The position numbers and the translations under genes were made by a program. A stretch of 33,178 nt of DNA from a virus (taxonomy: Duplodnaviria; Caudoviricetes): IMG/VR virus record IMGVR_UViG_3300028498_000046, positions 1-33,178 of that record. One strand, written 5' to 3'. Shown here in pieces: positions 137 through 32,488 of this stretch (the first letter of the stretch is position 1; each line of letters opens with the position of its first letter). The notes beneath the pieces were generated by a model that had not been told where the DNA came from, searched no databases, and worked only from the letters and a program-made list of their open reading frames with translations.

Positions 137-415
137 GCTCAAAATTTTAATGATTTGACCATCGATAATGGTGTAGTGACGCCTGCTTAATACCTTATTA
201 GACTCTTAAACCAAAGGATTACTGTATCGATGCTGGCTAGTGGTAGCTTATATTGCTCGCTTTCGTTCTCTCATATGTACATAACCTTAGAAGGATAGGT
301 ATTTATATAGTTGCTCAGTAATAACCAATCGGTTAAAGTTAACTAATATTTAGATATTTGCTAACAGCAGTTAACATGTGAGTTATTAAGCTATAACCAA
401 TACAATGGAGTGTTT

Positions 416-1225
416 ATGAGTCAGTACAACTTAGCTTTGATTTCTCATGAGGTAGATCAACAGATAATTTATCAACGTGCTGGAGATGGGTATGTAAATG
501 CTACCGCCATGTGCAAAGCCGTAGGAAGATTATTTGCTGACTATAACAGAAGTAAACAAGCACAAGAGTTTTTGAGTGCACTATCCGACGATATGGGAAT
601 TCCCATATCGGACTTAGTACAAGTGATTAAAGGGGGTGAGCCTCATTTACAAGGTACTTGGGTTCATCCTGACGTAGCTATTCACCTTGCACAATGGTGC
701 TCACCTAAGTTTGCTGTTCAGGTTAATAAATTTATTAGAGAGTGGATGCAAGGTGAAAATCCTTTGCAAAAAGCTCTCAGTCAGTGGCAGTTTTACATTG
801 ATAGAGCTTCCTTAGTAAACAATTCCGTACCACAAAATTACTTCAGCGTATTTAAAGAAGCAGCTCCATTGATGGTTACACTTATATAAAGTGGTGTCTT
901 AGTTGACGATAAGACAGTTCCGGATATTTCTATTGGTTCTCACTGGGCAACCTACTGGAAAAAGCAAGAACTAGCTCTTGATCACGGTGAGCCTACTAAT
1001 TATCTGCATTTTTATCCAGAGAGTTATCCTCAATCTGTTTCAAATCCTCAGAGCGTCAAAGCTTATCCTTTGAGCGCTCTTTCAGATTTTAGAATATGGC
1101 TAGAAGGCATTTATTTACCTGAAAAATTTCCAAAATATATGCTCTCTAAACAAAAACAAGGTCACATAGAAGCTGGTACCGCAAACAAATTAATAGATGC
1201 TTTTTCACCCAAAAGAATTAACTAG
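416..1225 (+). pseudogene. BstA-like abortive-infection protein (KilA-N N-terminus), interrupted by in-frame TAA at 887-889
   Basis: N-terminal KilA-N motifs (DGYVNATAMCK, GTWVHPDVAIHLAQWCSPKFAV). The same frame continues past the stop to TAG at 1223-1225 with VPDISIGSHWATYW...YLHFYPESYPQSVSNPQ...YP..ALSDFR.W, which I recognise as BstA C-terminal-like. GGAG precedes ATG 416. Confidence 0.7.
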
Positions 1226-2042: not shown

Positions 2043-3020
2043 ATGGGAGAAACAGCAAACACATCAAAACTAGCAAATAGAGTTTCAGATGATATCTTCA
2101 AATGGCTGAAATGGAGTAGCAAGCCATTGACTGATGTTGACTGGGAGTGCGTAAATGTTGAAAAGCATCAAACACACAAATTTAAAAAACATCCTACAGA
2201 TATTGTTTTCTACTATACACATCCTTACTCTGGGAAAACTATTTATATAAATACAGACTTAAAAAGTTATAAATCTACAAGTATTACCGAGTCTTCAGTT
2301 AGAAATTCTTTGAAAAGTTTAGCTAGGTCTATCGAATGCGCCTTGATTAGCCCAGATTGGCAGGAGAAATTTACCGATCCCAACGATGATTTTGAAGTAT
2401 CAGGACTTTTATTTACATTCAATTATGATAATCATTATTCAAAAGATTTTCTAAAGATATTGCAAGGTATTCGCTTAGAAACACTGGGTATTCAAGAGGG
2501 TCAAGTTATAGCTGTCTTTGGTCCAGAAACTATAAACTACTTAATAAACTTAGTTAATGACTTAAGACTTGTAGTACAGGATAACGAGCAGTTGGGCCCT
2601 AATTCTTATAATTTCTTTTATCCTCAACTGGTAATGAATAAAAAGCACTCATTAGATAATTATGCTGCAACTACAGAAGCAATTCTCTCACCTTATTTAA
2701 TAGTTGAGTTTAAAGAAACCTGTAAAAAACAATACGTTATATATTACAAAGAGAGTGGCGATACAGTAGATGAATTCATTTATCTTATTGATATTTTATC
2801 AAACTATCAGATTTTAGATACAAAAAACAGTATAGAAGTAGTGCTATATAATACAGAATGCAGCAATATATTAATTCACTTTGAGAGTGCAAAGAGACAA
2901 TATGCAAAAGCTTGGGGTTTAAGCCTAGAGGATAGTAACTTCAAGAATCTTACTGCAAGGTTGATAAGTAGAATACAACATACTTACAATCCTTTGAATG
3001 AAGGTATGCAAGATGAATAG
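2043..3020 (+). CDS. Putative PD-(D/E)xK-like nuclease, first gene of a low-GC three-gene operon (GAPS4a-like, tentative)
   Basis: 325 aa, RBS AGGAG. HPTDIVFYY...NTDLKSY fits a PD...DxK nuclease motif. AT-rich; lies in the accessory arm. Confidence 0.6.
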   Translation: MGETANTSKLANRVSDDIFKWLKWSSKPLTDVDWECVNVEKHQTHKFKKHPTDIVFYYTHPYSGKTIYINTDLKSYKSTSITESSVRNSLKSLARSIECALISPDWQEKFTDPNDDFEVSGLLFTFNYDNHYSKDFLKILQGIRLETLGIQEGQVIAVFGPETINYLINLVNDLRLVVQDNEQLGPNSYNFFYPQLVMNKKHSLDNYAATTEAILSPYLIVEFKETCKKQYVIYYKESGDTVDEFIYLIDILSNYQILDTKNSIEVVLYNTECSNILIHFESAKRQYAKAWGLSLEDSNFKNLTARLISRIQHTYNPLNEGMQDE

Positions 3021-4116
3021 AATCAAAAAAAGCTTATTTTTTAAAGATGACAAAGATGTTTATGATGCGCTTGTACAAAAAACTCCAAGTAAGAAAATAC
3101 TACTCAATCATCTAAAAAATAGAGGTCTGTTACTTTCAGAGGATGAAGATAAAACTGGAATTGCTGAATATATCTCACCGTTTTTTACAGGATTTTTTGA
3201 TCAAAAATTCATAGTAGATGCGAACAATGATACTAAATCAAATAAGAAGTTCGCTTCTGTTGGTTTAGATGTTGACTATGATTATTCTGAATTAAAGAAA
3301 ATATGTGATTCTATTAAAAAGCAAGAAGATGGACTTATAATTCAGAAGCATGGAGATAATATTAAGATAACGCAATCTTATACAAAGCCAGATTACTCTA
3401 AAAATGTCTTATCACAAAATACACCAAGAATGGTAGAAATAGAAATTGAAAAAAACTCGGATGGCACAGTCTTAGTACGTTCAAACAATGATGAACAGGC
3501 AACTAATATAGTATCTAAAATAAAAGAACGTGTTAAAGAAAAACATGCTGATGAATATAATGAGTTCAACATTTCATTTTCCGCCTTAGCTAGCCCAGTA
3601 GCTCGAACTGAGTTTTTCTCTAACCTAATAAAAAGCATAAAGGGTTATAGACTAACTAATGTTAAAATGGTGGCTGTTAGTAAAGAAAGTCGGTCTATGG
3701 TAAGCGATGAAGATGCTGATACTAAACTAGGTTACATTAGAAAAGCTGTCCTAAATGGTGGCTCTGTTAACTCCTCAGAAGAATTCTTGAGACTAGTTGA
3801 ATCAGGTTTCTATGTGACCAAAATTGAATGGACGATTGAATCAGACCTGCATAGTGGAGACAAAATCGACTTATATGCTGAATTCAAAAATATAGAAGAT
3901 TGTTCTGATTTTATATACTCATTACAAAGAGTTTATAAAAGAAAGGATAATGGTGATTTTTTATCTAGTGGATCTTCCCCTTCAGATATCGAGAATTCAG
4001 TTATGTTGCCAAAAATAGAGCTAGCTGCCAAGATTTCATATGAGTCTATATTATCTGAATATGGCGAGCTAGATGTTACTGTCGAGATGACTAATGAAAA
4101 CAATAAGATGGTTTAA
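3013..4116 (+). CDS. Hypothetical protein, second gene of the putative defence operon
   Basis: Long AT-rich ORF. ATG 3013 overlaps the upstream stop and is more plausible than 2998. Confidence 0.75.
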   Translation: MNRIKKSLFFKDDKDVYDALVQKTPSKKILLNHLKNRGLLLSEDEDKTGIAEYISPFFTGFFDQKFIVDANNDTKSNKKFASVGLDVDYDYSELKKICDSIKKQEDGLIIQKHGDNIKITQSYTKPDYSKNVLSQNTPRMVEIEIEKNSDGTVLVRSNNDEQATNIVSKIKERVKEKHADEYNEFNISFSALASPVARTEFFSNLIKSIKGYRLTNVKMVAVSKESRSMVSDEDADTKLGYIRKAVLNGGSVNSSEEFLRLVESGFYVTKIEWTIESDLHSGDKIDLYAEFKNIEDCSDFIYSLQRVYKRKDNGDFLSSGSSPSDIENSVMLPKIELAAKISYESILSEYGELDVTVEMTNENNKMV

Positions 4117-4786
4117 AGTAAAGCTACCTATAGATGCAGAGAGCTTATCAAAAACATTTTTAGACAATCCTTTCTCTGAAGAAGTAGGTGAAGGCTTTAT
4201 TATAAAAAAATCCACACGTTCTGAAATAATCGGTTCATTTGTTAAGACTAAAAAATTTATAAAAAAGGTTGAAAGCCCTAGAGGTGAGATCAGCACTATC
4301 TCAGGTATAGAATACTTTACTATTGAATTTAGATTTATATTAAATAATGTTAATTTGTTAGAAATATATTCTAAGCCTAGAACCCTTTTACCATTTATAA
4401 ACAAAATAATTCAAGAAATAGGTATAGGTTTTTCCATAGCAGAAATAGATATTGATATTTTTAGCTTTTTGTCTGTATTGGAAATAGAGTTCGGCAGTAT
4501 GCATATTGAAAAAATAGTTATAGAAAACATTAATATTAACAACTATGCCCTTGGTCAATTAACTATAGTCAGTGATAAAGATGCTAGAGAAAGTATAAAA
4601 AACTACTTATTGGAAGGTAAAGATTATACAGTAAAATCAATAAAAGCTCGCCTGACTAATGAGGAGTTTAAAGGTGGCTTGATAGAAATAAATAGAAACT
4701 CTAGGATAACTATCAACGATCTACCTTATAAATTATTTAGTAAGCGTTACTTGCAGATATATTTAGAATTTATAGGTTATGCTTAA
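4094..4786 (+). CDS. Hypothetical protein, third gene of the putative defence operon
   Basis: 230-aa AT-rich ORF overlapping the upstream gene and followed by a terminator. Confidence 0.75.
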   Translation: MKTIRWFKVKLPIDAESLSKTFLDNPFSEEVGEGFIIKKSTRSEIIGSFVKTKKFIKKVESPRGEISTISGIEYFTIEFRFILNNVNLLEIYSKPRTLLPFINKIIQEIGIGFSIAEIDIDIFSFLSVLEIEFGSMHIEKIVIENININNYALGQLTIVSDKDARESIKNYLLEGKDYTVKSIKARLTNEEFKGGLIEINRNSRITINDLPYKLFSKRYLQIYLEFIGYA

Positions 4787-4823
4787 TTAGGGATAGATTT
4801 TTTACTACCCACCCTATCACCCG

Positions 4824-4849
4824 ACCCGCCATTGAGCGGGTTTTTTATT
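4824..4849 (+). terminator. Rho-independent terminator of the three-gene operon
   Basis: ACCCGC-CATTGA-GCGGGT followed by TTTTTATT. Confidence 0.8.
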
Positions 4850-4879
4850 GGCCAATTTAGATCTCTAATTGTAAACAAG

Positions 4880-7090
4880 GCGCTCGACATCATGTCGAAC
4901 CCTACTATCCAAAATTGGACAGTGATATAAACTTGCCAGCCTTGCCCAACTTTGGGCACGCCTTTGTATTTTTCTACATCCTCACTCTGAGTGAAGTTTA
5001 AGACCGTTCATCATCACGATGAACCCTATCTCCTTCCCCAAACTTGGGGAGGGTAGCATTTCAAATGTAACCCTTGCTATACATCCAACCTCAATTTGAG
5101 GGTGGATAAGCACACTGCCCAAAGTTGGGCAATGGAAATAACCCATCGTAATTATCCAACCCTCAGTGGGGAGTGGGCCTAATCAAGATGAGCCCAAAAC
5201 TGGACCTATTTATTTACCTATGCATTACGCTACTACCGTTGGTGGAACGTCTTCTGAATCATAGCTGTCCTAAGCGACTGATTTTTATAAACTTCCACCA
5301 TTGACGGGAGTTGGATTACAACCGCCAGTGACGGTTAGAGCGACTCATTCAGAATTTCACATTCTGGATTGTTAAGGGTATGCTGATTTTTAGCACACCC
5401 TATCAATAAAGGTGCTAAATAAGCTGACACCAATGGGGCGGACGTTTGCTTATAGATAGGCGTCGTAATATCTACGACACCTCTATGATTTTAATCATCA
5501 GCGATGCGCCCAAATTAGAGCAGACCTTGCCAGCCTTATTCATAGCATAACTGCCAGTGGCGAATATGGTAATTATGAATATGAGTGTCCTAAATTCTAG
5601 GACACCCTGTAGCCCCCAATCATCAATGGTGATTAGATCTATTCATTCAATACTCGAGCTGACGCAAAAATCCGCTGGCATGTTGATATTGACTAATAGG
5701 TTTTTAATAGCCATGCTCAAAAGTGAGCATGGGCCTCCACACCTTAAAGAAGTCATAAACAATTGATTTTATTGCTAACGAAAAATTGCGTTGGCTGTGT
5801 AAAGATACCTCCCCAATTTTGGGAAGTGGTAAGTTTTCTACAATCAAGGGCGATAACACGATAATGAATGAGTAATTGGCTGCCGCTTTGAGTATTCAAC
5901 CCGGGGTTGTAAAGCCCGTAATCCATACCTTCTCTGCTAAGTTGTTTTTCAGCATGCGTATAAAAGTTAATTTCCACCGTTGGTGGTAATTCAATAACGG
6001 CGTTTGTTGAGGTCTGCCTAATGTACATCGTCACAACCTTTTTTATGGAATCTTAGAACCCTTATTGCGGGGATAGATATAAGCAAAGTTGAGGGGATTT
6101 ACTATAAGTGCAAAAAACATTCTTGTTATTCGCCTTGTTTAAGATGTTCTCTAATGGAATAGCATGACATCCACAATCTGTAGAAGTCCTATAGCACGGT
6201 CATTTGTCTGTGTTTCAATAGTGCGTTTGACACTATGTCACGTTTGGATATTTTCATAATTACTGTGTTAGCTCGGCTATCGCTTTTGTATTTGTATCAA
6301 TACCAACAATAGCGTCAATTTTGACCTTAAGCCATTTATTTGGCCGACCATAAATATCAGGCTCAGGTAAAAAGCCAGACTTTCGACGCTGGGTGATGGT
6401 ATCGTCAGACTTCCAACCAAAAATGGTTTTAATATCCGCTGTTGTATAGTAAGCACCTGTCACAATTTTAATTCCTTATTCAGATTGTTTGTAATATGCT
6501 CAGTGTTATCGATATAGGGTTTTATGAGGTCCTGTACCTAAAGCTTGCTGAGGTAGTAAGCTTCAGGTGCAGCGGTGAAGTACAACCCCAAGTCTAGATA
6601 TTATATCCACTAAGTTTTATTAAATCGGTCTGCCACCTTGGGTATTCACCATTGAGGTGTAAACCCCGTAGTCCGTGCCTTATCAGGCATGCTGGTTTTG
6701 TGGATGTAGAAATTTGAGCCGTTGGCGGTAATTCAATGAGACTAAGTGCTGATATCCCTATGATTGCTTTCTTAAGAACGCCCACCGTTGGTGGCGATGC
6801 TATTATGACTTAGGCATTCGACATTAAGTCGTAAACCCCGTATTCAGTGTCTTCTTGGGTATGCTGTTTTTTAGCATACCTCTAAAATTAAATTCTCTCA
6901 ATTTGAGATGATTCAATAAGACTTGTCTGTAAATATCATATTGTAGCTGTAGCGATAGGTGTGCAAATGATACGCCCAAGTGCTATTTATAATAATGTCA
7001 GATGAATCACTTTTGAATTATCAGTAGTATCAAGTATTTAGATTATAGGGTGTTAACTTCTTTACACCCTAATCAATGATTGATGATCTA
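4880..7090. repeat. Array of ~30 diverse short imperfect palindromes
   Basis: Examples: 4884-4898 TCGACAT-C-ATGTCGA; 4943-4958 TGCCCAA-CT-TTGGGCA; 5006-5024 GTTCATC-ATCAC-GATGAAC; 5035-5050 TCCCCAA-AC-TTGGGGA; 5585-5605 GTGTCCTA-AATTC-TAGGACAC; 5711-5732 CCATGCTCA-AAAG-TGAGCATGG; 6858-6880 GGTATGCTG-TTTTT-TAGCATACC; 7047-7070. No T-tails and no shared repeat unit. Confidence 0.85.
6260..6463 (-). CDS. Small AlpA/excisionase-like winged-helix protein
   Basis: YYTTADIKTIFGWKSDDTITQRRKSGFLPEPD...NKWLKVKID pattern; GTG start with AAGGA RBS. Confidence 0.7.
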   Translation of the reverse strand: MTGAYYTTADIKTIFGWKSDDTITQRRKSGFLPEPDIYGRPNKWLKVKIDAIVGIDTNTKAIAELTQ

Positions 7091-7594
7091 TTTAGAAGTA
7101 TTACTATAAATCTAAGGGCTTCATAATATACATTTCATCTATCTAGCCTTAATTTATGCGTTACATTACCGAAACTTAACAAGTACAAAAAACAGGTTGC
7201 GCGGTGCTTCCATGGGGTTGTTTTGCTAACAACTACACGTGCGCGATTATTTGCCGTTTTAGTCGTGCATTTTTGATTCGTTAAATCATACTTTAGCAGT
7301 AAATCGACAAGTTGGATGTCCTTATCTTTGATGGTAATCAAATATATTGTGGTGATTTTCTGATACTAAAATCAACTTGCAACTTTCTTTCATGGGGTTA
7401 AATTGCTGACGCAACCTATCAGTAGCTATATATAATATTTGAATAGGTCTAAGTAGGAATTTTTGACTATATCTTAGATATAGAAATGACGCTTGCTTTC
7501 ACGATGTTCAAAAAAGTCGCAAGTTAACAAAGAGAGTATTCCAGAGCCAATCTAACCAGCTATAAGATTTGAAGTAAAAACAAGGAAGTGCCCA

Positions 7595-7870
7595 ATGGCT
7601 AAGAAGTTATGGAAGAACGTCACTGAAGACGAAAAAATGAAGATGAAGCAGTTTGTTATTAATAATCCACCGGACACACCGCTGACGCCTGAATATGCAG
7701 CAAGCTACTTGGGTGTATCGACAGCAACCCTGCAAAAAATGCGCTGCGAAGATACCAATGGCATAGCATTTTTTAAGCCCAGTTATAGGTGTGTCGTTTA
7801 CTACAAGCGCGACTTAGATGCGTATTTGACAAGCTCGCCAGCCTATCGCTGCACCTCTCAATACACTTAA
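7595..7870 (+). CDS. Excisionase/HTH_17-like DNA-binding protein
   Basis: LTPEYAASYLGVSTATLQKMR...GIAFFK...VVYYKRDLDAYL; AAGGA RBS. Confidence 0.8.
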   Translation: MAKKLWKNVTEDEKMKMKQFVINNPPDTPLTPEYAASYLGVSTATLQKMRCEDTNGIAFFKPSYRCVVYYKRDLDAYLTSSPAYRCTSQYT

Positions 7871-9110: not shown

Positions 9111-12100
9111 TTACGTGCCAGCCAATTCCTCCTGTCTTAATGCTAGGCTGTCCTGTATATTCTGGCGCTCAGCACTGCCAAAGTCTTTACGCTCGACGCG
9201 CTTCTCTGCTGACTTTTCAATCTTGTCGATATCAACATTAAAGTGCTCAGCGTTACGCTCATTCCATGCGTCCATCTCGTTATACAGTGCATCGACACGC
9301 GCATCGTCATCTTGATAGATAGCCTCTGCTAAGTGTTTGCTAAAGTAATCCGTCTTAGCCTTCAGCATGTTTTTCATATCATAAGCGTTACTACGGTCAC
9401 GCCCTGGTCTTGCGTTATTGGCAGGGTTAAAGGCCAACGACTTAATCACGGCATCGGTTTTATCCAAGTCCATGATCTTATCACCTTTGGTGTTACGGTA
9501 TGATCCAGTCAATGCAATCTCAGCACCTGACGCCGCATCACGAATATAACGAGGTGACGCCGTGATAAGTGCGTCTTTATACTTCCCATCGGCGGCCATT
9601 GACGCGGCTGAAAAGAAACTCTCGTAAAACCCTGACGACGCACCCAATATTTCAGCCCAGTCGGTAGGCCCTGGTCTAATCACATCAGTACCGGGAATAA
9701 CATTACCCAGACTTGAACGACCATGAATATCAATACGACCCTTCTCACTGGCAATCCCATACATCAGCGCGTCGGCATTACTCTTACCTAGCAGTCCTTC
9801 TAAATAATCAGGCAAGTTAAATGCTTTACCAAACACGCGATAAGCAATACCTTCAAACAGATCGCGTAAGTCATCAGCGAACGGTAAGCCCAACATGCCA
9901 GCCAAGGCAAATTGCCACATCATCGCTACTGCCAGCGCTTTAACTTCTTTGTCTCGACCGTGGCGTATCATCTGCTCAGTATAGTTAATCGTGAACTGTT
10001 TAAACACGAGGATTAATGGGCCATACTGACCAAGCTTGCCGTTACCGCGTGCCAGCCCTGAACGGTTCGCTTTGTTATAGATGCCCTGCGTCTGCTGGAT
10101 GATTGATACCGCAAAGTCGTAGTCGCTATCAAACCCCTTTGCTTTTAATTTAGCGGCGCCCATATCTTTCGCTACCCTAAAAGCGGCAATCATAGTGCTA
10201 CGGCGGTTGATCGATTCCGATACTTCGGCAGGCCAGCCAGCGGCGGCTTCAATATTACCCCACACGCCACTCGCCACCCCGCCTTTACCTCGTTCAAGCC
10301 CTTTAATCATGTAGATATTTTGCGGATCAAGATGCCCTTCTCGCGCCATGCGTAAGTAATCTTCTTTTTTTACCCACGCTGGCAGGCTATCTTCAAAACC
10401 TTTCCAATTTGGTGTTGGCAGTCCGGTCGCTTTTTTACCCATATTAATGGCAGACGCGCCCATATTTTTACTAACGATACCAAGTGCTTGCGCCATATAA
10501 GCATGGCCCTTGCCAGCGCCTACATAAGCAGTCAGTTTGGGTATGGTCTGGGTAAATGGCTGCGTTAAGTTTAAGAATAAAAACGCTGGTGAGAAGCCCA
10601 TAAAGTAATGAAACATAAGACTTCTTTGCTGAGCGAACTCCTCTTGCGGGTTTTCCATATTCTCAAAGACTTTCTGCGCCTCATTCTGCAAATTGCCGTC
10701 CTCAATGTTTTGTATTGAGCGTTCAATCTCATTGTTGTATAGGCTGCGCCCACTGTAGCGGGCATTACTCATCACGAATGATGACAGTACGCGTGGCATA
10801 TCCTCACTATAACCAGGAACTTTCTTACGATGAATCAGGCGTTTTAGTGCACTACGATCACTGACCGCAATCTTTAAGTACGCTTGATAAGCGCCATCAT
10901 CATCTAAGCCAAGTTCAGCGGCAAATAGCTGCACCGTTTCAGGAGATAAGCCTTTATCCTTAAACTGCTTAAATCCTTCTGGATTCAGCGTGCCAGTGCC
11001 GATGGTAAACTGGCTCTCATCGTAGCGCTCTTTTAACTCTTTGATAGCCTTACGCTGCTGACCTTTGGTTTCGTATAACTCGAACAAGTCTAAGTCATTC
11101 GATACTTTATCGCGCACCTCTACCGCATAGTGGCCAAAACGCATCAGCGGTGCATAACCATCTTCAACCAGCTTGTCATACTTGCCAGCGACCGCATTCA
11201 TCACATCAAACACGGCATCCAACTGCTTCTGCATACGTGCTTCAGCTTTTGGTGTAATTAACCCGCCCTTGGCTAGCTTCTCAAGCTCATCCGTCATGTG
11301 CTGCTGAAGCATAAGATTATGGCCAATAGGTGGCAGCCCTGCCAACTTTAACCTTTGCACAGTAGGAAGGCTGACTAGTTTTGTACCTTTAGCTAATGCA
11401 GACAGCGTATCGACCGTCATATTTAATACCGAGCCATCAATTGCCTGACGCGCTCTGCGGTAAAGATTAATATCCTTATCAGTTAAATCAAACATCGTTT
11501 GCAGCTCGTTATCATCCCACACCTTGTCTGCCATGGTGCCGTCAAAAATTGCTTTTGAAACACGCTCCATCGCTTCTTTTTTCTTACCAACGACTAGGCG
11601 CGTGTCCCATATCTCAGGTAGGTATGTTTGCACCAACCCTGCCTCGTTATTCTCATAAGCGATGCGCGCCTGCACGTTGTCCGTAAATATTTTAAACACT
11701 GGATTAAGTAGCGCAACATGCTGCGGTGTTGCCAAGTGGCGTCTAAGTAGCAGATTAACCCCAAACTTAGACGACATGGTAGTCGCTTGTGCAAGCGCCA
11801 CTCTGTCTCGTGCTTTTTCTTTAGCGGTGACTGGCTTGCCGTCGGTACCAAGGCTTGAATAGCGTCGGCTGAACCTGATATCAGGATTTGAGCTATCAAA
11901 CGTGCCAGCGTTGTCGGTGGCTGATTTAACTTGGTTAGCATCTAACACCATGACTTCTAAGTTATCAGCGCCATTATCTAACACCACGCTGTCATGACCG
12001 TTATCTATGAGGTACTGCGTGAACTCTTCTGCTTCCGCTTTACCACCATCACGGATCATGTTTTTTAAGCTTTGGGTAGCAACAAAGGGATTGCGCGCAT

Positions 12101-15100
12101 TAAGATACACGTTCATTACGCTAAGCCCAGCGTCACCCTTTTTATTAAAAGCATAAAGGCGAGCTAATGGCTCATTTGTTGCAAAATAATGGCCTACACC
12201 TAGCCAACCAAAGTCTTTCTTGTTGGCGTGCGCATTATCAAATATAAAGAACTTGTCTCGTGTACCGTGTGAAAGCACACGTGGCTCGCCGGTCTCAGGG
12301 TCTAAATTGAAAATTCTCTGCGGATTATGTTTGCTGCTATTAGGGCTGTCGGATTGCCGCTTGTTTCCAGTATCTCTACTGTCTCTCTCGCCATTACTCC
12401 TGGTGTCATCCATGCTTCTTGTGATAGCTTCATTGGGCTTTCCTCTTTTATCCTGTCTAACTCCTCTATCTGCTCGCTCGTTAAGTCCAGTAGCGTTTTC
12501 GGTTCTTTGTCCATTTTCCCAATCTCCAAACCAGTTTTTGAATGAAGGCGTGCGTACCTGTAACCATTGTAGTTCAGTTAATTTACTTGGTAAACCATTA
12601 GGTGCCTTCATCCAACTGTCTGTACCTTCGTACTGTTTGCGCACTGCATCGACTTGTGACTGCGGTGCTGGCGCTTGGCTAAACTGCGCCTGTCCTGCTG
12701 GCATGTCATCAATACCAGCAATATTTAACGGGCTGGCTTCTTGATCAGATAAACGCTTAACCATGCGCTCAGCCAACTGAACGATATCATTAGGCGTCAT
12801 CTTTAACTGTACGCCAGTATGATTGCGAACCCATGCCCGCACGCCAGCCATAACGCGATTAACAAAGCGTTTAATGACTGCAAGCGGACCGCCACGCTCT
12901 GTTGCCTGCGCGTACTCAGTGATTAGGTACGGGATATATTCATCGCGTGCCTCACTTTCTGTATCGGTGACTGCCTCTGCTCGCTCCTTGGCTGCCACTG
13001 CATACTTGTTGCCAGACTTCACTAGGTTATCAAAGTTGGTCATGAGGCCCATGTAAGTTTGCGGCGCAAGCATCGATTGAATACCAGCATGACCGCCCAT
13101 TTCATGTAGTAGAGTAGCGATGGCATTGTCAGCGGTTAGGTTGTCTGCAATCAGCGTTACCTTGCCGTCGTAGTAAAACCCTTCCGCATCACTTGGGATA
13201 AGCAATCGACCATCGGCATTAACAAAATCGTTGAGGGTGCGCACTCGTAACTTGCCAGACTTGACCAGGCTTGCGACCGCTTCTTTGCCGAAGCGCTTTT
13301 GCAATGCGCCAATAATTTGCTGGCTAGTGGTGCCGGTTACACCTTTGGCTGGGTTGGTTGTTATGCTTTCGGCTGCTTGCTTCATCTGTCCGGCGCGGCT
13401 AAATAATATTTTGCCGTTACCACCTTCTGAGGCTTTGCTGTCGATGGTGGCGAATAGGTTATCAAACGCCTCTACAACGGGTGCCATCTCACTCTCTAGC
13501 AAGTACGGATATCTATCCATGTTTCTAGGAAAGGCATTCTCTGGCGTGACGTTGGCTAGGAAGTCGCTGCGTGCGCCTTGCTGCTCTAACTTATGAATAA
13601 TATAACTCTCAAAACTACGTGCCGCACGTTCGATAATGCGTGACCAATAACCATCGGGTGCGCCTTTATCGATGGTGGTTGCACGATCTTTCATGGGCGA
13701 ATCATTAAGCGAGTTAACCAAATCCGCAAAAGCTTCTTCAACTTTTGGGCGCACGCCCTCTGGATGACTTGGGTCGGGTGCCCAATTTTCAGCGGCGTAC
13801 ATTGGGTCATTGCTATTAGCTCTGCGCTTCTCAAGCGCTGGTTTGCTAATTAAATAACCTCTACCTTTTTGAGGTGTGTACATCATAGAAGGTTCAGGCT
13901 TATAGGTGATATAAGTATCTTCTCGCGACTTGTTTCTCGCTGGCGAATCACGGAATGATGTGAAGTGATGATCGAGTGCATGAAACCATTCATGCGCCAA
14001 CGTGCCAGCGCCTTTGGTTTTGGTTAGGTTAATCACCACTTGCGATGGTTCATAGTGCGCCATAGCACTGCCCTTGCCACGCGCACCAAAAGACATACCA
14101 AGCTTACCGCCTAGTCCGATAGCTTCAGATGGAATACCTAGCACGCCAGCCAAGTCCATGAAGGCGTCATAAGCATCATTAAGCATACCTTGACGGTCTT
14201 TACTATTTGCGCCTTGCTTAACCCAATTACCAAACTGACCACCACGCAAGCCGAACGCTTTCATGAATTGTTCGGTTGTTACATCTTGACCGCTTCGATG
14301 GTCGGGGCCAATGCGTTCACGGTTTTGTCTTGAACGTGTGTCAGTTTTTTTGACATTCACTTTTTCTTTGTGCTGCGCCCACAGCTCAGACAGATCGTTA
14401 TTATTTTCTTTCAGGAAAGCCCGGGCAGAATCTCTGTCGTTAAAGGTGATTAACGGCGTCTTATCTTTGTCACTGGTCTGCGTGATAAACCATGATTTAC
14501 TATCGCCACGACCGCGACTGTATAAATCAAATTTTAAAGTCGGTGTTTTTACCTCACCTGACAATAGCTCGTTTACCTTACTTACCACCTCTGATATTTG
14601 CTTATTGTCAGTAGGAATAACGTGGCGGCGCTTATCGATAGTGATATCAAAGCTCATATCAGGCGATGTGCTACCGTCGTCATTTTGAATGGCGTAGTAA
14701 GGGCGATGATCCACGGCGGTCACTCGTGCCCACTGGTCCTGCTCGATGGCAGATAGTAATTGCGCGTGATAGCCAGTAGTCTGCAAGCCCTTTACTTTGG
14801 TCATTTGCTCGATGAACTGCCCCACCAATGTATCGTCACCCATTATCTGCTGCATGATACCGCGTGCATTTTTGACCTGCTCTACCCAGTTATTGAGTTT
14901 GTAACCTTTGCGCGGCTTACTTGGTATAGTGCCACGCAAGACAGTAGCGAGAGCTGCCGTCTGCTTGTCTTCGATAGCCTCAATATCCTTCTTGGGCCAT
15001 ATCTTACTTAATGGCTGGCTAGAGATATCGTCATCAGTAATCTCTCTTTGATAGAACGACTCCATATCTTTACGCGCACCAGTTATCTTCTCGCCAAAGT

Positions 15101-18100
15101 CTTCAATCTCTGCGACTGTCTCAATAGACGTGGCTGGCTTGTCTGCTTTTTCGGCAGTAGGTTTTTTGGCTGCCTTTTCTTCGGATTTTTCGGGCGATGG
15201 CTGTTTGTCGGCCTCAACTTCTACGGCGGTGCTTTTGGTTTCGCTCGCTGTATTCGTGGTGACCATATCTTCACTTTGTACCGGCTTTAAATCCTCAGCA
15301 CTAGAAACCTTTTGATTGTCTTCTGACGCTTTATTCTTAACCGCCTTTTTCGCTGCGGCTCGCTTGGCGTTGGCGGATTGAGGCGCTTCAACCTCATTGT
15401 TCAAACCTAATGAGGCTGTATTAGCAAGCTTGCTTACCTCCGCCTCTTCAGCGGCTTTCTTAGCTGCTCTAACCTCTGCGTTAGCTTTAGCTACTGCACG
15501 ATAAGAGTCGTCCCTAGCTTTAGCAGCTACCTTGCCAGCATTGACCTCTATATCGGTGTGAAAGTCACCAGCCTTGTCGCTCTGACCTGCATCACCAACA
15601 TCAAAGAACTCGCCCGATGTAACCAATCTGCCAGCATCGTTATAAGATATACGCTGACCATCAGGCGCTTCATACACCGGCTTGCCATAAGCGTTTTCGC
15701 CGATGATGCTGTTTACTTGGCCACGACCATACTTCACGGTTGGTGGGTGGTTATTCGGATTGGAATAAGCAGGCGCTTTATTTTGAATTGTAAAGCCATC
15801 CTTCGACTGCACAATATCAACTGTAACAGGGTTAAGCTTGCGCTTCTTGATAGCGGCTCTAGCGGCAGATTTACTCTTATATGCCGTCGTCTGGTCTGCT
15901 GGCTCAGTGGTGCTGACATTAACCACAGGTGTTGCTGGTTTGCTTGCAATAGGTGCTGGAGTATCAATGACAGGATTTTGCTCTGTGAGCTCGATAGGGT
16001 CTGTTGATATTGACTCAGTATCAATTGGTTCTGGCTGCTGCTCTTGCATTGGCGCGGTTGATTCGTCTGCTTGCTCAACCGGTTGTTTGCCTGCCTCTAC
16101 AATTGCATAGCCATCCGCTACTTCCATGATGCTGACCGACTTTGGGTCAATCTTTTGCTTTTTAATGGCAGCGCGTGCCAGCGGCTTGCTTTTATAAACC
16201 TCCTGCTTATCTGCTTCCGCTTGTTCGGTTGCGATTTCAATAGGTGCTGTCATGTCTGTGGTTTTGGTTGCGCCCGGGGCTGGGATATTGATGACTGGGT
16301 TTTCATCAGTTAACTGGGTCGGATTCGTCCAGCCTACCTTCTCACTTATTGTTTCATGAACCACCCTGTTGACTTCAGGCTGTGGCAATCCTGCGTCTTC
16401 AGCGCGCTTCTGTGCATCAAGCATAGCTTGTGGGTCGCGCCCATAGTTATTAGCAATATCGTCTTTGAGGTTATCAAGTGTATAGCTAGTAGATTCCTGC
16501 TCTACTACTGGTTGCTGTGCTGGCATGGTTAAACCATTGGCGGTAGGTGCGATTTCTTGCGGCTGCTCGATTGTTGGCGCAGTAACTTGTTCATCTGTCT
16601 GCGCCACTGCGCCTTCACGACTTTGTCGCACTCTCGTTAGGCTGTCAGTGAACCACTGGTGCAACTCTTTTTGCACGCCCTCTGGCATAGACTGCCAGTC
16701 AGACTTAGCGACGTTCTGTTCTATCTCACCACCAAACGCCTCAGCGATTGCCTTTGCTTTGGCTGTCGCTGGCAAGCTACTATCCCAAAAACGTGCCAGC
16801 TTAAACGGCGCGCCATCAGCACCCACGATAGTAGTATCAAACGATTCATTTTCATAAGGCTGTGCAAGCTGCTCGCGTGTCGATAGCAACTCATCTTCTT
16901 TGGCACGATCAGCTTCGCGCTGTTCAATTTTTTGCGCGACAGCTTGTTTTTCTGCATCAGTAGTAGCGGCTTGCGCCTCTTGCTGTAACTGACCGTCGAT
17001 TTGCTGCTGTTTTGCGCGCTCACTAGCGATGTAATCATTAATACCTGCGGTAGCGCCTTTGATGCTTTCTTGCTGCTGTGCGAACGCTGTGTCCTGTTCT
17101 GTGGCTGCGGCTCGACTAACCACGCCTGACAGTCCTTGCTTACCTTCACCGCGCTTGCTGTCGTACCAGCTTTGGGCGGCTGCAATTGATTCCTCTAATG
17201 GCTTCTCACTGCTACCGTCTTCAATCGCCTCATCAAGCGCTGCTTGCTCTGCAATAAGCTCAGCAATCTGTGCGTCTTGGGCATCAAGCTCTTTTTCGCT
17301 CAATACTGGTGCGGCTGGCGTTGCTTGCGGGGCTGGCGTGCCGTCTGGGTTTAATGCGTTTTCAAAGCCTTGGTCATCCAGTTCAGTAGCGCCATCGACT
17401 TGACCGTCAAATTCGGTTGCCGTGCTATTGGTTGGTTCAATACGTGGTGCGCGACGTGCCAGCGAGGTGCGAGGAATACTTGCCTTTTCTGCCTCTGCTG
17501 CCATGGCATCAAGTGCGGCGCGAGTTTCTTCCACACGCGCCGTTAGTGCCTGACCTTCTGGTGATCGTGGCGATACAGCTTCAATCTGCTGTTGCAGCTG
17601 CGGTATTTGTCCGGCAACTTCAGCATAAGCTTGCTGTGCGGTCTTTAAATCATCTTGCGCTTGCTGTAGTTTTGAGTTGCGTGTGCCAACATAGACACTG
17701 CCGCCCATTACACCGCCTAAGATACCGCCCATCAGCATCGCTTCCTTAAGCTGCGGCTGATTTATCTTGTCTTTTACCCCTACATCAACGGCAGCTTGCT
17801 GTGCTTTATAATCGGTATAACCTTCTTGCAGCGCCTCTTCTGCGACGTTCAGTCCAACAATACCAGCACCAACGGCAGCGGGGATAGCAACCCTTGCCAC
17901 CTTGCCAGCGTCAGCTTTGACCGCCAATGTGTTAAATACTTTTTGCCCCCACTTGCTGACAGCGCCACCAGCGGCGCGGTTGGCAGTAAATGAGCCAACA
18001 CCCGGCGCAAGCATACTAAGCGCCAGTGTCGCAAGACCAACAGCATCACCTGATTCTTCTGCAATACTACTGATTGTCTGGTCGCGTGATTTTTGGTGCG

Positions 18101-19055: not shown

Positions 19056-19062
19056 ATTGTAT

Positions 19063-21051
19063 CTACCAGTCTATGTTGTCGTTTAGGTTCTCTAAGTAGT
19101 TAACATTCTCTGCTGTTTTCGGGTCAGTCTTTACGGCTGGTAAGCCGCGTAAGGATAGAGCTTGCAGCTTACCGGTTTGCGGAGTTTGTCTTGCTGGCGC
19201 TTTTGGCTGCTGACCGGGTAACATCAGCCCACCACCCGTATTGGCACTGGCAGTAGACCCACCGCCTTTTGCATTGGGATTGATGTCGTAGATCATTTGC
19301 TTGAGCTGACCAAGTGATGACGCGCCTGCCATTGAAAGTAATACTTTATGTCCTAGGGCGTTCTTATCAGCCTTACTCATCGCTTTCTTCTTACCTCTTG
19401 GCTCTGGCACCGCACCAATCACCAAGTCAAACGCTTCTTGATATAGGCTTAAAAACTCTTGCTCATTCTTGGCTGTACCCATGCTTTTTAGCTTCGTGCC
19501 AGCACGTGCGTAGGTGGCAGTGGTGGCAGCATCCGGCTTGATACCTAGATTCTTCACGTCTTTTAGCGCGATATTGACACCCTTATCAACTGTGGCGTTA
19601 TAGTCTTTTGTGGTTCTGACGGCTTGTGCTGGCGTCTGATTGGTTTTATTTGCGCCTTTTGGAGGCTTTGCTGCCAATGGCTGTGTAAGTGTGGTTTGCA
19701 CGCCGCCCGCTGTGCTTGACCGATGTTTTACTAGGTAGTCTGTAAGAGAAGTCCCTAGCTGGTCTTTAGGGTTATAGCGGCCATTGGTTTGCACAAACTT
19801 ATTCATGCCGCCCTTACCGCCAAGATGAGCGACGGCAACCAAGCCGCCTAATGTCACTGGAACGCCATTAATTACTTTGCCTACTGCACCGGTTGCTTGT
19901 GCTGCGCTAATCAGATCGTTTACGTGCCACTCATTAACGGCTCGCTGCTGCGCTGGTGGCAAGTTTTTAAACTGGCCTGCTGATATAGGTCTTGAGCCTG
20001 TTGCTGTTGCGTAGTCTTTTAAACGGTCATCGCCCATCTGTATTAAGCCGCCATAGCCTTTGCCATTAGTATTGGTTCTAAATGCTCTGCTATTGCCGCT
20101 GCTTTCTGTGCCAGTGAGTGAGCTTATAATCCCATTGACTTGACTGGCTCTATCTTTGCCAAGCGTTACACCTGGCGTCTGACCTTGGTCGACTCCTGCT
20201 TTGTATAAATACTCTTCCATTCGATTGTAGGTCTGTTGGTCGATACGTCCTGCAGCAAGCTCGCCCTGAATGTACGCTAACGATTGTGCGTGCCCTGCTT
20301 GGTTGTCTTGCTTATCTATTGCGTAGCCCTGCAATTTTTCATCGCGCTCTGTTTGGTTTTTAAAATCAAGGCCCTTTAAGCTGACAGTATAACCATGGTC
20401 GCGTTCAGCTTTTATGCCATCCGCTTTGACATCAATCTTTTTCTTACCGCCATACAGTGTTAGCTCGCGCTGATCCTTCTCAGTCTCTTTGCGCTTCTCC
20501 GCTTCATAAGCGTCTTTCTCTGCGGCAAGAGACTGCCCGTTTTGCAACTGCTTGTAACCATTCATCAGCTGGTCATACGTCACTGAGTCAGTGCGCATGA
20601 CTTTGCCGGTGTCTTTATCAATGATATTTTGGAAGTAGTATTTATTGCCATTCTCATCGGTGCGTGCCGCGACCTTGCCATTGGCATCACGCGCTACGTT
20701 TATCTTGTACGGTAAATCGCTGTGACTGTTTGCGCCTTCTACAATGGCATCGATAGCACCTGACTCATCGCCCAGATTCTTAAAGTATTCGACTTTATTA
20801 AACGCCTTGCCATAGTTTCTTTTATTGATAGTATCAGTGCGAGTGTCTTTTTCGTCTTCAAGCTTGAGAGTATCAGACTGATAATTAACGTCATGTGTTT
20901 CTTGCGCATTCTTATCCTGCTGCGCTTGACGGTTGCGGTCGTACTGTTTATCCGCTACACGCTCCGCTTCTTTTTTCTTATCGTCTTCATGCCCCATGAT
21001 ATTTTTGGCAAATTGATTGGTAAACTGTGCAATTCCGGTCAAGCTGCTCAT
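19063..21051 (-). CDS. Putative virion ejection protein with lysozyme/transglycosylase-like domain
   Basis: 662 aa. TESSGN...GYGGLIQMG...GKVINGVPVTLGGLVAVAHLGGKGG...DQLGTSLTDYL (~19730-20135) is lysozyme-fold-like. AGGAG RBS. Confidence 0.75.
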   Translation of the reverse strand: MSSLTGIAQFTNQFAKNIMGHEDDKKKEAERVADKQYDRNRQAQQDKNAQETHDVNYQSDTLKLEDEKDTRTDTINKRNYGKAFNKVEYFKNLGDESGAIDAIVEGANSHSDLPYKINVARDANGKVAARTDENGNKYYFQNIIDKDTGKVMRTDSVTYDQLMNGYKQLQNGQSLAAEKDAYEAEKRKETEKDQRELTLYGGKKKIDVKADGIKAERDHGYTVSLKGLDFKNQTERDEKLQGYAIDKQDNQAGHAQSLAYIQGELAAGRIDQQTYNRMEEYLYKAGVDQGQTPGVTLGKDRASQVNGIISSLTGTESSGNSRAFRTNTNGKGYGGLIQMGDDRLKDYATATGSRPISAGQFKNLPPAQQRAVNEWHVNDLISAAQATGAVGKVINGVPVTLGGLVAVAHLGGKGGMNKFVQTNGRYNPKDQLGTSLTDYLVKHRSSTAGGVQTTLTQPLAAKPPKGANKTNQTPAQAVRTTKDYNATVDKGVNIALKDVKNLGIKPDAATTATYARAGTKLKSMGTAKNEQEFLSLYQEAFDLVIGAVPEPRGKKKAMSKADKNALGHKVLLSMAGASSLGQLKQMIYDINPNAKGGGSTASANTGGGLMLPGQQPKAPARQTPQTGKLQALSLRGLPAVKTDPKTAENVNYLENLNDNIDW

Positions 21052-21064
21052 AATAATCTCCTAG

Positions 21065-22065: not shown

Positions 22066-22275
22066 AGAAGACACGTACTACGCGATATCAAGTTAATGCT
22101 ATCTCAAATAGATGATCCAAATATGGATGATACTGATTTTAAAGAGGTTTTTGACAGTCGTGGCTATACGTCAGAAATCCTGCTTAACAAAGGCTTAACC
22201 CTTACGTTGGTCGCAGGGTACAGCTCAAAAGCTAGATACCAGATTATTAAGCGCTGGCATACATCAGACAGTTAG
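22066..22275 (+). pseudogene. Rha-family phage regulatory protein fragment
   Basis: Translates RRHVLRDIKLMLSQIDDPNMDDTDFKEVFDSRGYTSEILLNKGLTLTLVAGYSSKARYQIIKRWHTSDS*. Rha motifs H.VLRDI and LV.GYS...R..II.RW. No start codon between the upstream in-frame stop (22024) and the motif. Confidence 0.75.
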
Positions 22276-27500: not shown

Positions 27501-28239
27501 GAAGGATAGCTCCTGAACAATTAGTTAGTTTGTTGCCGCCCAAAAAAAAGGGTGACAGGTTATTAACTACCGTGTTCAGACGGCGGGGCTTATTTCCCAC
27601 AAGGGGTCTTTTATTCGGCCCACTTAACCCGTCATAGATGTTCGCACCGATAGTATCGGCACTATATTTATGACTTGTCTGCAGTGCAGAAATATTCGTA
27701 TTTATGTCATTGGTAAATCGCTGATAGTTAGTCAGACAAATTTTGGACATAAAAATAGCCAGGGAATGACGGCTTGGCTTTGCCGCTGAACAATTAGTAG
27801 TGAGGCTATGATAACGCTTGTTATCGTAGCTTGTAAAGCTCTTAATGTTAATTAACGTTTGAGCTAGTTCGCATGTGGTCAATAACATTAACAGACCACG
27901 CTTGCCAGCCCATGTGTGACTATGCGCTTCGTTATGGCCTTTTAAATTAGGTCTAGTATGATTACACTCATGGCTTGATGCCTCCATTTCAGGCAGTAAT
28001 ATAAGCCCATCCATCATTTCACTTACTACGCTTCCCAGCTCACTATTAGCAAGTAGGGCCGTCCTTACAGCAACTATTACACCCTTGCTTGCGTCATCAT
28101 CGGCATTGATAGTGTTAAGCGCCATTGCTAGGCTTTCAGCGTCGTTTGATAGGTCTTGTATGTGGTCATTAATGACAGATAAATAATAGCTATCGACTGC
28201 TACGAGCCGCGGTTCTAAAACTTCATTGTTATTTTTCAC
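27493..28239 (-). CDS. Hypothetical helical N-terminus fused to an Ash/Icd-like region
   Basis: C-terminal half SAAKPS...AIFMS...IYDGLSG...PRRL..VVNNLSP is Ash-like. GTG 28239 has a GGAGG RBS. May be two genes joined in frame. Confidence 0.55.
   Translation of the reverse strand: MKNNNEVLEPRLVAVDSYYLSVINDHIQDLSNDAESLAMALNTINADDDASKGVIVAVRTALLANSELGSVVSEMMDGLILLPEMEASSHECNHTRPNLKGHNEAHSHTWAGKRGLLMLLTTCELAQTLINIKSFTSYDNKRYHSLTTNCSAAKPSRHSLAIFMSKICLTNYQRFTNDINTNISALQTSHKYSADTIGANIYDGLSGPNKRPLVGNKPRRLNTVVNNLSPFFLGGNKLTNCSGAILHG
27545..27640 (-). ncRNA. C4/CI-like antisense RNA (limits approximate)
   Basis: Minus strand ...ATGACGGGTTAAGTGGG...CCGTCTGAACACGGTAGTTAATAACCTGTCA can pair end to end (TGACGGGTTA/TAACCTGTCA). 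Its CTGAACA segment is complementary to the flanking repeats. Confidence 0.55.
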
Positions 28240-28765
28240 TGTCACTACCTCCTGCAAGCTCTAGACTTGGCTGCATCTTTTCAAGCGTGTCATCAATGCT
28301 GCGCTGCAATTGCGGTTTAATCTGTTTGCCAGCAATATTTAGAAAGCGCCCAGCACTACTAAGGTTTAAAGTTACAGCGTTTATGTCTTTACATAGTTCA
28401 TCGAGCCGCTTGCTAAGCTTATGTTGATGATTTGCAACCTCATCAAAAGTTTGAATAACGAGCAAAGTAAACTCTGCACTAATCCACATTGCATAGCGAT
28501 AAACTAACTCTTTACAAACGTAAGTACCTTGTTTGCTCTTTGCATTACCGCCTTTAATTATCTTATATGCCTTGGTGCTGTTACCGTTCACCATATTTGG
28601 TGTTCGCTCTACTGCCTTAACCAACTTCCTTGTTTCGGCATTTCTCATAAAGCGATATGGTGCGTGCTTTTTCTGACCCCCACTCGCCCTATGAAAGTCA
28701 TTTAGACAATAAAGGCCGTCTTCTGTTATGCCTATTTTGTTGTTTAATACAGTCAGCATAATCAA
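28229..28765 (-). CDS. KilA-N domain protein (antirepressor-like)
   Basis: DGLYCLNDFHRASGG...P..FMR...QGTYVCKELVYRYAMWISAEF. Confidence 0.9.
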   Translation of the reverse strand: MIMLTVLNNKIGITEDGLYCLNDFHRASGGQKKHAPYRFMRNAETRKLVKAVERTPNMVNGNSTKAYKIIKGGNAKSKQGTYVCKELVYRYAMWISAEFTLLVIQTFDEVANHQHKLSKRLDELCKDINAVTLNLSSAGRFLNIAGKQIKPQLQRSIDDTLEKMQPSLELAGGSDSEK

Positions 28766-31069: not shown

Positions 31070-32404
31070 TTAACCATGCTTTTGTGTCTGTTGTTTAAAG
31101 CTGGCATGAATGACATTATCAAACTTGCCTGCCTTAATATCATCTAAATAGTTCGCCCATTCATTCATCATGCGCGTTCGTTCAGGTATGGCTTGCATAC
31201 GGTTATATGCCTTACCGTACTTGTTAAGCATTTGGTGCCCTAGCTGTATCTCTGTTAGTAGCTCGTCATAGCCTAATCGTTCCATCAGCATAGTTTTGGC
31301 GCTGGCACGAAAGCCGTGGGGCGTGTGCACCTCTTTATAGCCCCTACCTTCGTAATTGTTGCCAATGCCGCCGCTATTCATAGATGGGTCGTTCAATATC
31401 TTATTTACTAACTGTGGGTCTTGATAAGGGCCTTTCTTACGTTTGGGATTGTGGAATACATAATCATGGCCGCCCGTTAATGACTGCATCTGTTCGATGA
31501 CTGCTATTGCTTGCGGTGCCAGTGGTACAACCAAGCTTTCTACCATGTCCTCACGGCGCTGTCCTTTTTGAGGCTTAAATGCCCATTGCTTAGCGTTTAG
31601 GTCAATATCTGTCCACCTCATCGCGCATATATCACCTACACGCGCAAAGGTAAGCGTTAATAGCTTTAATATTGGTTTGTTGTACACATGCTTATCACTT
31701 AGCCCGTCGATGTCTCTTAACAGGACAGCAAAGTCTTTAGGGTCTGTTAACGAAGCGTGATGCTTTGTCCTAGTGGGCTTCAATGCTTTAGCGCCTGATA
31801 ACTGCGTTACCGGGTTATATTCAATGAGCCCCTTTAAAACAGCATGCGCAAATATTCGCTGCGCCATGTGCTTAACACGATTCCCTTTATGAACATATTC
31901 TCTTTGTATGTCACGACATAAAGCTAGAACTTGCTGAGTAGTGATCTCGCTAACCGGCAGCTTCCCAAAGGCGTCTGTTAGCGGTCTAAGGTAATTGTGG
32001 ACGTTTCTTAAAGTGCTAGTTGCTGGCTGGTGGTCAGGGTTGTTAGTCAACTCATTTAACCAATCATCAGCAACTGCTTGAAATGTATTGTTGATAGCAG
32101 CGGCTTGTTTTGTTCGCTCATTATCGCGCTGAGTTATGGGGTCCAACATCTGAGCAAGCATGCTCATATTATCGTTGTGCATTCGTCTTGCCTGCTCAAG
32201 TGTCAATGCAGGATATTGTCCTAGCGTCATTTCCTTACGCTTACCTGTCATTGGGTGCGTGTAACGATGCTGAAACTCAATGCAACCACCCCTCATGCGC
32301 AACCTTAAACCTTGATACCCACCAATAGTGTGATAGACACGCTTTTGACCATGTGCCTCTTTTATGGCTCTTTTAATTTGAGTATCAGTTGTTAATGCTG
32401 CCAT
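31070..32404 (-). CDS. int: Tyrosine integrase, P4-like with Arm-DNA-binding domain
   Basis: GLRLR...TLGQYPALTLEQAR N-terminus; catalytic ARVGD, HGFR, LGH, AYNR motifs. Confidence 0.95.
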   Translation of the reverse strand: MAALTTDTQIKRAIKEAHGQKRVYHTIGGYQGLRLRMRGGCIEFQHRYTHPMTGKRKEMTLGQYPALTLEQARRMHNDNMSMLAQMLDPITQRDNERTKQAAAINNTFQAVADDWLNELTNNPDHQPATSTLRNVHNYLRPLTDAFGKLPVSEITTQQVLALCRDIQREYVHKGNRVKHMAQRIFAHAVLKGLIEYNPVTQLSGAKALKPTRTKHHASLTDPKDFAVLLRDIDGLSDKHVYNKPILKLLTLTFARVGDICAMRWTDIDLNAKQWAFKPQKGQRREDMVESLVVPLAPQAIAVIEQMQSLTGGHDYVFHNPKRKKGPYQDPQLVNKILNDPSMNSGGIGNNYEGRGYKEVHTPHGFRASAKTMLMERLGYDELLTEIQLGHQMLNKYGKAYNRMQAIPERTRMMNEWANYLDDIKAGKFDNVIHASFKQQTQKHG

Positions 32405-32444: not shown

Positions 32445-32488
32445 TGACCACCAATCTGACCACCATTTATGTAACTAATTGGTGGTCA
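32445..32488 (+). repeat. Putative integrase arm-type binding sites (right end)
   Basis: TGACCACCA at 32445 and 32457; inverted TGGTGGTCA at 32480. Confidence 0.75.

Follow-up and report, generated by a model that had tools for sequence, protein, structure and literature searches.

A non-coding array of palindromes on a putative Psychrobacter satellite, very probably a library of phage Rha and AntA protein sites

The window, that is, the whole stretch of DNA analysed here (a single virus record of 33,178 bases), contains a non-coding array of about 30 short palindromes located after an Hp1-Hp2-Hp3 (3HP) defence operon. The array very probably constitutes a library of cognate Rha and AntA sites, corresponding to palindromes that phage genes for these proteins carry within their coding sequences. 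It represents a real, recurrent and undescribed kind of element, whose identity is well supported and whose function is predicted. A literature search with poor coverage of subscription journals found no paper on arrays of this kind or on the Rha code reported below.

Palindrome array and genomic setting

Positions 4880-7090 contained 23 palindromes with a score of at least 6, compared with 5.0±2.1 in 200 dinucleotide shuffles, none of which exceeded 11, which amounts to an excess of roughly four- to fivefold; a dense array had been proposed for this region in a preliminary description of the sequence, and the shuffle scan upheld it. The excess was found in positions 4880-6000 (17 palindromes versus 2.5 in shuffles) and, more weakly, in 6600-7090 taken on its own (4 versus 1.2±1.1). 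No enrichment was detected in 6000-6600 (2 versus 1.2), which holds an excisionase-like gene; the excess is genuine but the single array of the preliminary description has to be divided into two blocks. Most of the individual sites listed there also stood: of the 29, 25 reach at least six paired positions out of nine (background 21%), and 17 resemble a palindrome of a phage gene at 17/22 or better. The view that the region is not a CRISPR agrees with the finding of no common repeat family in the array and no cas gene among the 25 ORFs scanned.

The array is composed of the following features, with units present in both orientations:

4881..5991, no strand: array block 1, with about 28 palindromic units
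Centres 4913.5, 4950.5, 5042.5, 5123.5, 5198.5, 5514.5, 5668.5, 5721.5, 5784.5 and 5817.5: even-centred Rha-type units of block 1
Centres 5095, 5166, 5301, 5328, 5388, 5470, 5595, 5626 and 5980: odd-centred Rha-type units of block 1
Centres 4891, 5015 and 5903: AntA-type units of block 1
6630..7084, no strand: array block 2
Centres 6653, 6825 and 7058.5: AntA-type units of block 2
Centres 6869 and 6902: Rha-type units of block 2
Centres 6722, 6788 and 6969: weaker units of block 2

The element is enclosed by att-like direct repeats at 113-136 and 32445-32468. Its replication module includes O-like, DnaC-like and DnaB genes, a Q-like gene is also present, and no capsid, portal or large terminase genes were recognised among its genes. 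At its C-terminus, the 3314-aa protein of the element shares 89-98% identity with eight loci, among them two named genomes of Psychrobacter as well as some larger phage records. The element would be a satellite or a defective prophage from this genus. The 3314-aa protein is the largest of three ejection-type proteins (9111-21796, minus strand), which are retained although no capsid genes were recognised, and by eye its relative in phage L001 contains a methylase/helicase-like insert.

The cargo at the left end comprises the Hp1-3 defence operon, two lipoproteins and a BstA homolog broken by a stop; in relatives, the slot of the operon is filled by Panacea toxin-antitoxin, Lamassu-like, PDC-S42 or P63C cargo instead. 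The main features outside the array are:

410..1224, plus strand: BstA homolog, interrupted in frame by a stop (887-889); its in-gene palindrome (589-610) is perfect over 22 bp
2043..4786, plus strand: Hp1-Hp2-Hp3 (3HP) defence operon, in the cargo slot
4823..4850, plus strand: intrinsic-terminator-like site between the 3HP operon and the array
6260..6463, minus strand: excisionase/AlpA-like gene of 67 aa (phrog_1553, E 1e-5), which separates the two blocks and lies outside the array
7595..7870, plus strand: HTH_17 gene, found downstream of the array in several satellites and not in full prophages
22069..22260, plus strand: start-less and truncated Rha gene remnant, with helix and palindrome (centre about 22122) retained
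28229..28765, minus strand: the element's own KilA-N/ORF11CD3 gene, with a palindrome at about 28596 that is missing from the array
31070..32404, minus strand: tyrosine integrase

Two short sequences deserve mention beside these features. A non-coding stretch at 7340-7410 is deeply covered by metagenome contigs, with many loose ends, and is probably a multi-copy Psychrobacter repeat. The 9-mer GCTGGCAAG is located at 4932, 5526 and 7907 of the window and is also found inside arrays; in G014, G056 and G122 it occurs 156-203 times per genome, compared with 6-11 times for the reversed control, and 99 of the first 100 matches listed for G014 lie on one strand. We regard it as a candidate Chi-like site of Psychrobacter.

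Correspondence with sites inside Rha and AntA genes

KilA-N, AntA, Rha and Bro-N genes were taken from 154 Psychrobacter genomes, and Rha and AntA genes also from viral contigs. The comparison library consisted of 208 in-gene sites, 14 of 222 genes being left out for having no palindrome of at least 7/11. The palindrome of Rha and AntA genes varies in sequence but keeps its place in the coding region: among 77 viral Rha genes, 65 have their best palindrome inside the same 38-nt window (18% expected), and 40 pair at 9/11 or better, compared with 0.8% of control windows. The positional signal was weaker in AntA (33 of 67 genes, 21% expected). The in-gene site is mostly single near its gene, with a second copy in one of 105 Rha genes and in none of 68 AntA genes.

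Fourteen of the 29 strong palindromes in the window match a library site at 17/22 or better (11 Rha and 3 AntA), where 0.1 were expected from pair-permuted palindromes with the same symmetry and composition, in line with the earlier proposal that the units correspond to genes for phage DNA-binding proteins. Across ten arrays, a gene site is matched at the same threshold by 108 of the 182 strong palindromes (about one expected; control palindromes 0/52), although these are not independent counts because the arrays are partly homologous. Scanning the window gave 21 units at 17/22 or better, representing 20 distinct core pairs. Unit 6825 agrees at 22 of 23 positions with the antA-kilAC site of the complete phage L001, a phage that has the large ejection protein in common with the element. 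Homology to the genes usually ends at the ~22-bp site, as in 17 of 20 units (27-32% identity beyond 16 bp), and in three AntA units some 50 bp of flanking coding sequence are retained. Against the phages and plasmids of GenBank, BLASTN with the array produced only chance matches and the excisionase-like gene. At nine loci with the C-terminus of the 3314-aa protein, no array was present in the flanks examined, and the units were matched only by the L001 antA gene.

The range of gene families was narrower than first proposed. Rha and AntA dominate the matches; no ORF6N gene turned up in the 154 Psychrobacter genomes, KilA-N was the best match of no window unit in the 208-site library, and Bro-N was the best match of a single unit, at 17/22 and with poor symmetry.

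In 76 Rha proteins, three residues of an H-X1-X2-V-x-R helix, the putative recognition helix, predict bases of the palindrome located about 60 bases downstream in the same gene. X2 His goes with C in 94/96 arms, Asn with T in 34/34 and Asp with G in 18/20; the helix Arg goes with C in 129/132 arms and non-Arg residues with G in 18/20, and X1 co-varies with the next two bases outward. These tables cover 76 of 105 Rha genes, all even-centred; the 29 excluded were odd-centred, from one clade, or mis-centred (two). The code residues were the top mutual-information columns among the 64 outside the stretch encoded by the palindrome. The Asn, Asp and non-Arg states recur on several separate branches of a Rha tree built without the code residues, a short and poorly resolved tree whose bootstrap is not settled. 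A similar residue-base pattern was seen in AntA by eye and is unquantified.

In an AlphaFold model of Rha (pLDDT 93), the code residues begin helix 14-30, which follows helix 3-10, and the palindrome encodes a loop and the first strand of a hairpin. From this predicted secondary structure, the Rha N-domain would be a winged helix-turn-helix. The Rha profile found no credible relative among solved structures, only ubiquitin artefacts and AspA at E 0.2.

Because the helix residues predict their bases, the in-gene palindromes are likely self-binding sites, that is, predicted binding sites of the Rha and AntA proteins encoded by the same genes. All ten even-centred units of the window fit the code, with about six specificities, and the array further holds several odd-centred Rha classes as well as AntA classes. 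The preliminary description had taken the palindromes for sites of DNA-binding proteins, and their counterparts in the genes do look cognate, both by their fixed position and by the helix-base co-variation. The intact BstA homolog of L211 differs from the window copy in both its in-gene palindrome and its helix residues, and site-helix co-variation may thus extend to BstA.

A precedent is coliphage HK022, whose Roi protein reportedly binds a site in its own gene beside an IHF site. The HK022 roi gene has a palindrome at the same coding position as in Rha genes and an IHF consensus at +23. Roi is like the Rha/AntA-KilAC proteins in having a Rha-type N-domain and a KilAC-like C-terminus (by eye), and its E. 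coli copies are annotated as KilAC-domain proteins. It has one site within its own gene, whereas the array has about 30 multi-specificity sites outside rha/antA genes and no intact proteins. Among 40 of 75 matches listed for the HK022 roi site in E. coli genomes, all were in genes. From the co-variation together with the Roi precedent, we infer that the array sites are bound by protein. With the IHF consensus, two perfect matches were found in the window array (0.10 expected), one of them in gene-like geometry:

5756..5768, minus strand: perfect IHF-consensus match, 22 bp from unit 5784.5, with the geometry seen in antA, kilA-N and HK022 roi genes
7028..7040, plus strand: perfect IHF-consensus match, 24 bp from unit 7058.5, with polarity opposite to the in-gene geometry

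One-mismatch IHF matches were unenriched in the window array (5 versus 4.5), and most units have no IHF match.

The sites appear to be foreign to the element. An aba-like self-immunity cassette had been suggested for the array, a claim that found no support: the palindromes of the element's own BstA and KilA-N genes match it at background level only (13/22 and 14/22, respectively). No intact Rha or AntA gene was found in the element, only the remnant at 22069-22260, which is a possible intermediate in the origin of array units; no KilAC domain was detected in the window or in the L211 and L212 records, and 0/5 other array-bearing records, some of them incomplete, contain Rha or AntA. Since its own palindromes are missing and cognate genes are mostly missing, the array would consist mainly of sites from other phages. 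An exception was the mini-array of the G148 phage, which includes a site of its own Rha class.

Related arrays and turnover of units

Matches somewhere in the array region were found in 21 of 154 Psychrobacter genomes, four of which have long homologous arrays. Further arrays were detected in G012:C181, G089, G107, G135, G121 and G085, as well as in IMG/VR records. They are located either in satellites, before an HTH_17 gene, or in full prophages, beside tail genes, and non-homologous arrays arose in several settings. Unit content and order vary between arrays, and a 316-base deletion between two similar units was observed in contigs of two studies. The gain, loss and reordering of units anticipated in the preliminary description are therefore evident among Psychrobacter satellites and prophages.

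Array identity between species was 75-81%, similar to that of neighbouring genes, and site cores were not better kept than linkers (79.0% versus 77.5%); selection on individual sites of the array is thus not demonstrated by sequence conservation. Where both arm bases had changed between arrays, 18 of 22 cells were still paired, several of them at a code position, but the 18 are not independent events. Template switching at quasi-palindromes can also yield symmetric double changes.

A shared lipoprotein gene followed by an array was found at 6 of 19 viral loci (four with less than 1.7 kb downstream) and at 0 of 20 further genome loci (three short), so the link of the array to the defence-cargo slot is loose.

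A two-site exact pattern gave no match in viral contigs. A two-site degenerate pattern matched nine of 401 Moraxellaceae genomes, and the reversed control pattern matched three. The nine comprise G085, which has a new 15-unit array, the known G089 array, small arrays in G015 and G080, in-ORF units in G345, iterons in G170 and G408, and two apparent chance matches. How far the arrays extend beyond Psychrobacter is thus barely shown.

Several smaller arrangements were also noted. Five back-to-back palindromes of ~20 bp, with no linkers and of Bro-N, KilA-N and Rha type, form the G148 mini-array in a phage tail region (L090 921-1035, G148:C5). Four back-to-back units are part of a 188-aa ORF and are read in its frame at the N-terminal end (L335 1450-1540, G345:C17), in a satellite-like element outside the Psychrobacter genus set. 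In L047 (G107:C12), about ten 11-bp tandem repeats are located between the cargo genes and the terminator, just before the array. The iterons of G408 and G170 are inside O-like replication genes (L337/L338, near 1500), have a core like His-type Rha sites and match an array unit at up to 16/18, a lead that some Rha proteins might bind rival replication origins. As a separate candidate, an iteron decoy for the element's own initiator was rejected, since the palindromes of four Psychrobacter O-like genes, including that of the window, agree with the window array at 15 of 18-19 positions at most, and no unit is repeated.

Proposed function and comparison with known systems

The full mechanism that we tentatively favour, with nearly balanced prospects, is a multi-specific DNA decoy that captures Rha/AntA proteins when the element replicates and shields the carrier from inhibition by them. 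Rha/AntA-KilAC proteins were adopted as its targets because 24 of 35 Psychrobacter Rha/AntA proteins with sites in the comparison library carry KilAC, in a scan that covered 23 of 29 Rha loci; this is the AntA/Rha/Bro-N plus KilAC architecture of AriS from Listeria phage 10403S (Azulay et al. 2022, PMC9043618). AriS would represent the target class and is not itself array-like; the passages of that paper available to us name no binding site or decoy. Most target proteins, with an AriS/Roi-like N-domain and KilAC, would curb phage replication as well as the SOS-driven induction of elements in the same cell. Once amplified, a satellite or prophage would soak up whichever Rha/AntA version a helper or co-resident prophage makes, and the carrier's own induction and replication could then proceed; capture would also disturb the autoregulation of the rival. 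Against the decoy, one to three copies per specificity represent breadth and not depth, a weak design for a stoichiometric sponge.

The same scarcity of copies weighs on an unlikely alternative, in which the amplified array would not protect its carrier but be anti-phage cargo that titrates autorepressing Rha/AntA proteins of helper or invading phages, derepresses early operons and mistimes the lytic programme. The position of the array directly after the defence cargo and the single in-gene site near each gene, which fits autoregulation, are consistent with such sabotage, as is the title of the Roi paper (Clerget & Boccard 1996, PMID 8763934, cited in PMC3430580), by which Roi inhibits lytic growth in IHF mutants. 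Arrays are present in full prophages too, and with the loose link to cargo this argues against it.

Breadth over depth would suit a role in cis, in which a helper regulator, with IHF, is recruited to the array as a landing pad or sensor and switches on the downstream excisionase-like gene or licenses replication or packaging. In several satellites the array stops just upstream of the HTH_17 gene, and ten arrays contain 10 perfect IHF-consensus matches where about one is expected. This role is nevertheless quite unlikely: in the prophages G012:C181, G107, L297 and G085 the genes on either side of the array converge and no HTH_17 gene follows it, about 500 additional bases separate the array from that gene in the window, and there was no promoter excess in the array (9 versus 10.1 expected).

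It is distinctly improbable that the units are a by-product, namely remnants of captured rha/antA pieces, either neutral or kept as silent cassettes that diversify in-gene palindromes by recombination. The equal conservation of cores and linkers, the coding flank kept by three AntA units, the decayed Rha gene, the deletion between similar units in two studies and the strand-skewed Chi-like 9-mer inside arrays would all agree with such an origin. Flanking homology is lacking in 17 of 20 units, however, the elements have no intact acceptor gene, and non-homologous arrays arose in several settings; moreover, swapping the site only would uncouple it from the helix encoded 60 bp before it, whereas about 97% of arms obey the code. 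A structured non-coding RNA of many hairpins is barely credible. In its favour are the folding z-score of -8.8 and RNA-library contigs over parts of the array, which may however be DNA. Against it, the palindromes by themselves account for the folding energy, arm mismatches show no preference for wobble pairs (G·T 58, A·C 81, other 125), units lie in either orientation, Rfam gave nothing above gathering score over 4700-7700 (two sub-threshold matches only) and a terminator is located upstream.

As predicted here, the DNA decoy can be compared with three known systems. CRISPR arrays, like the array, record sequence of foreign phages in non-coding modules that are gained and lost; the array differs in having no common repeat, no cas genes and one kind of site. 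The aba element, a DNA that neutralises the KilA-N-like phage protein BstA, resembles the array in acting as DNA on a phage protein, which for the array is a prediction. As a single element of 63 bp that overlaps the start of bstA and ends in direct repeats, aba acts on its cognate BstA and neutralises it in trans only at high copy (Owen et al. 2021, PMC8585504), whereas the array has inverted repeats, appears to be multi-specific and non-self, and is located 3.7 kb downstream of bstA. Satellite solo vrRNAs redirect VIPR to REP decoys (bioRxiv 10.64898/2026.10.15.759431). Both they and the array element are non-coding satellite cargo, and the vrRNAs divert a helper-phage silencing protein; that system uses RNA guides and host REP decoys, while the array would offer protein-read DNA sites on the satellite itself.

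Temperate phages very commonly carry Rha and AntA 'antirepressor' genes, for few of which a DNA target is known. With the residue-to-base code, each Rha target becomes predictable from sequence. If the array works as a decoy, it would represent a protein-free, purely DNA-level form of phage-satellite conflict, and would provide a natural set of small orthogonal repressor-operator pairs. A broader reading, possible though doubtful, is that Rha/AntA-KilAC proteins are widespread inter-phage lock-and-key weapons and the arrays a master key ring of rivals' sites. If true, each gene would encode a three-residue code together with its own DNA key and would restrain co-replicating elements that have no key, and the key ring would be an updatable, CRISPR-like DNA memory of rivals' sites with no protein or RNA of its own.
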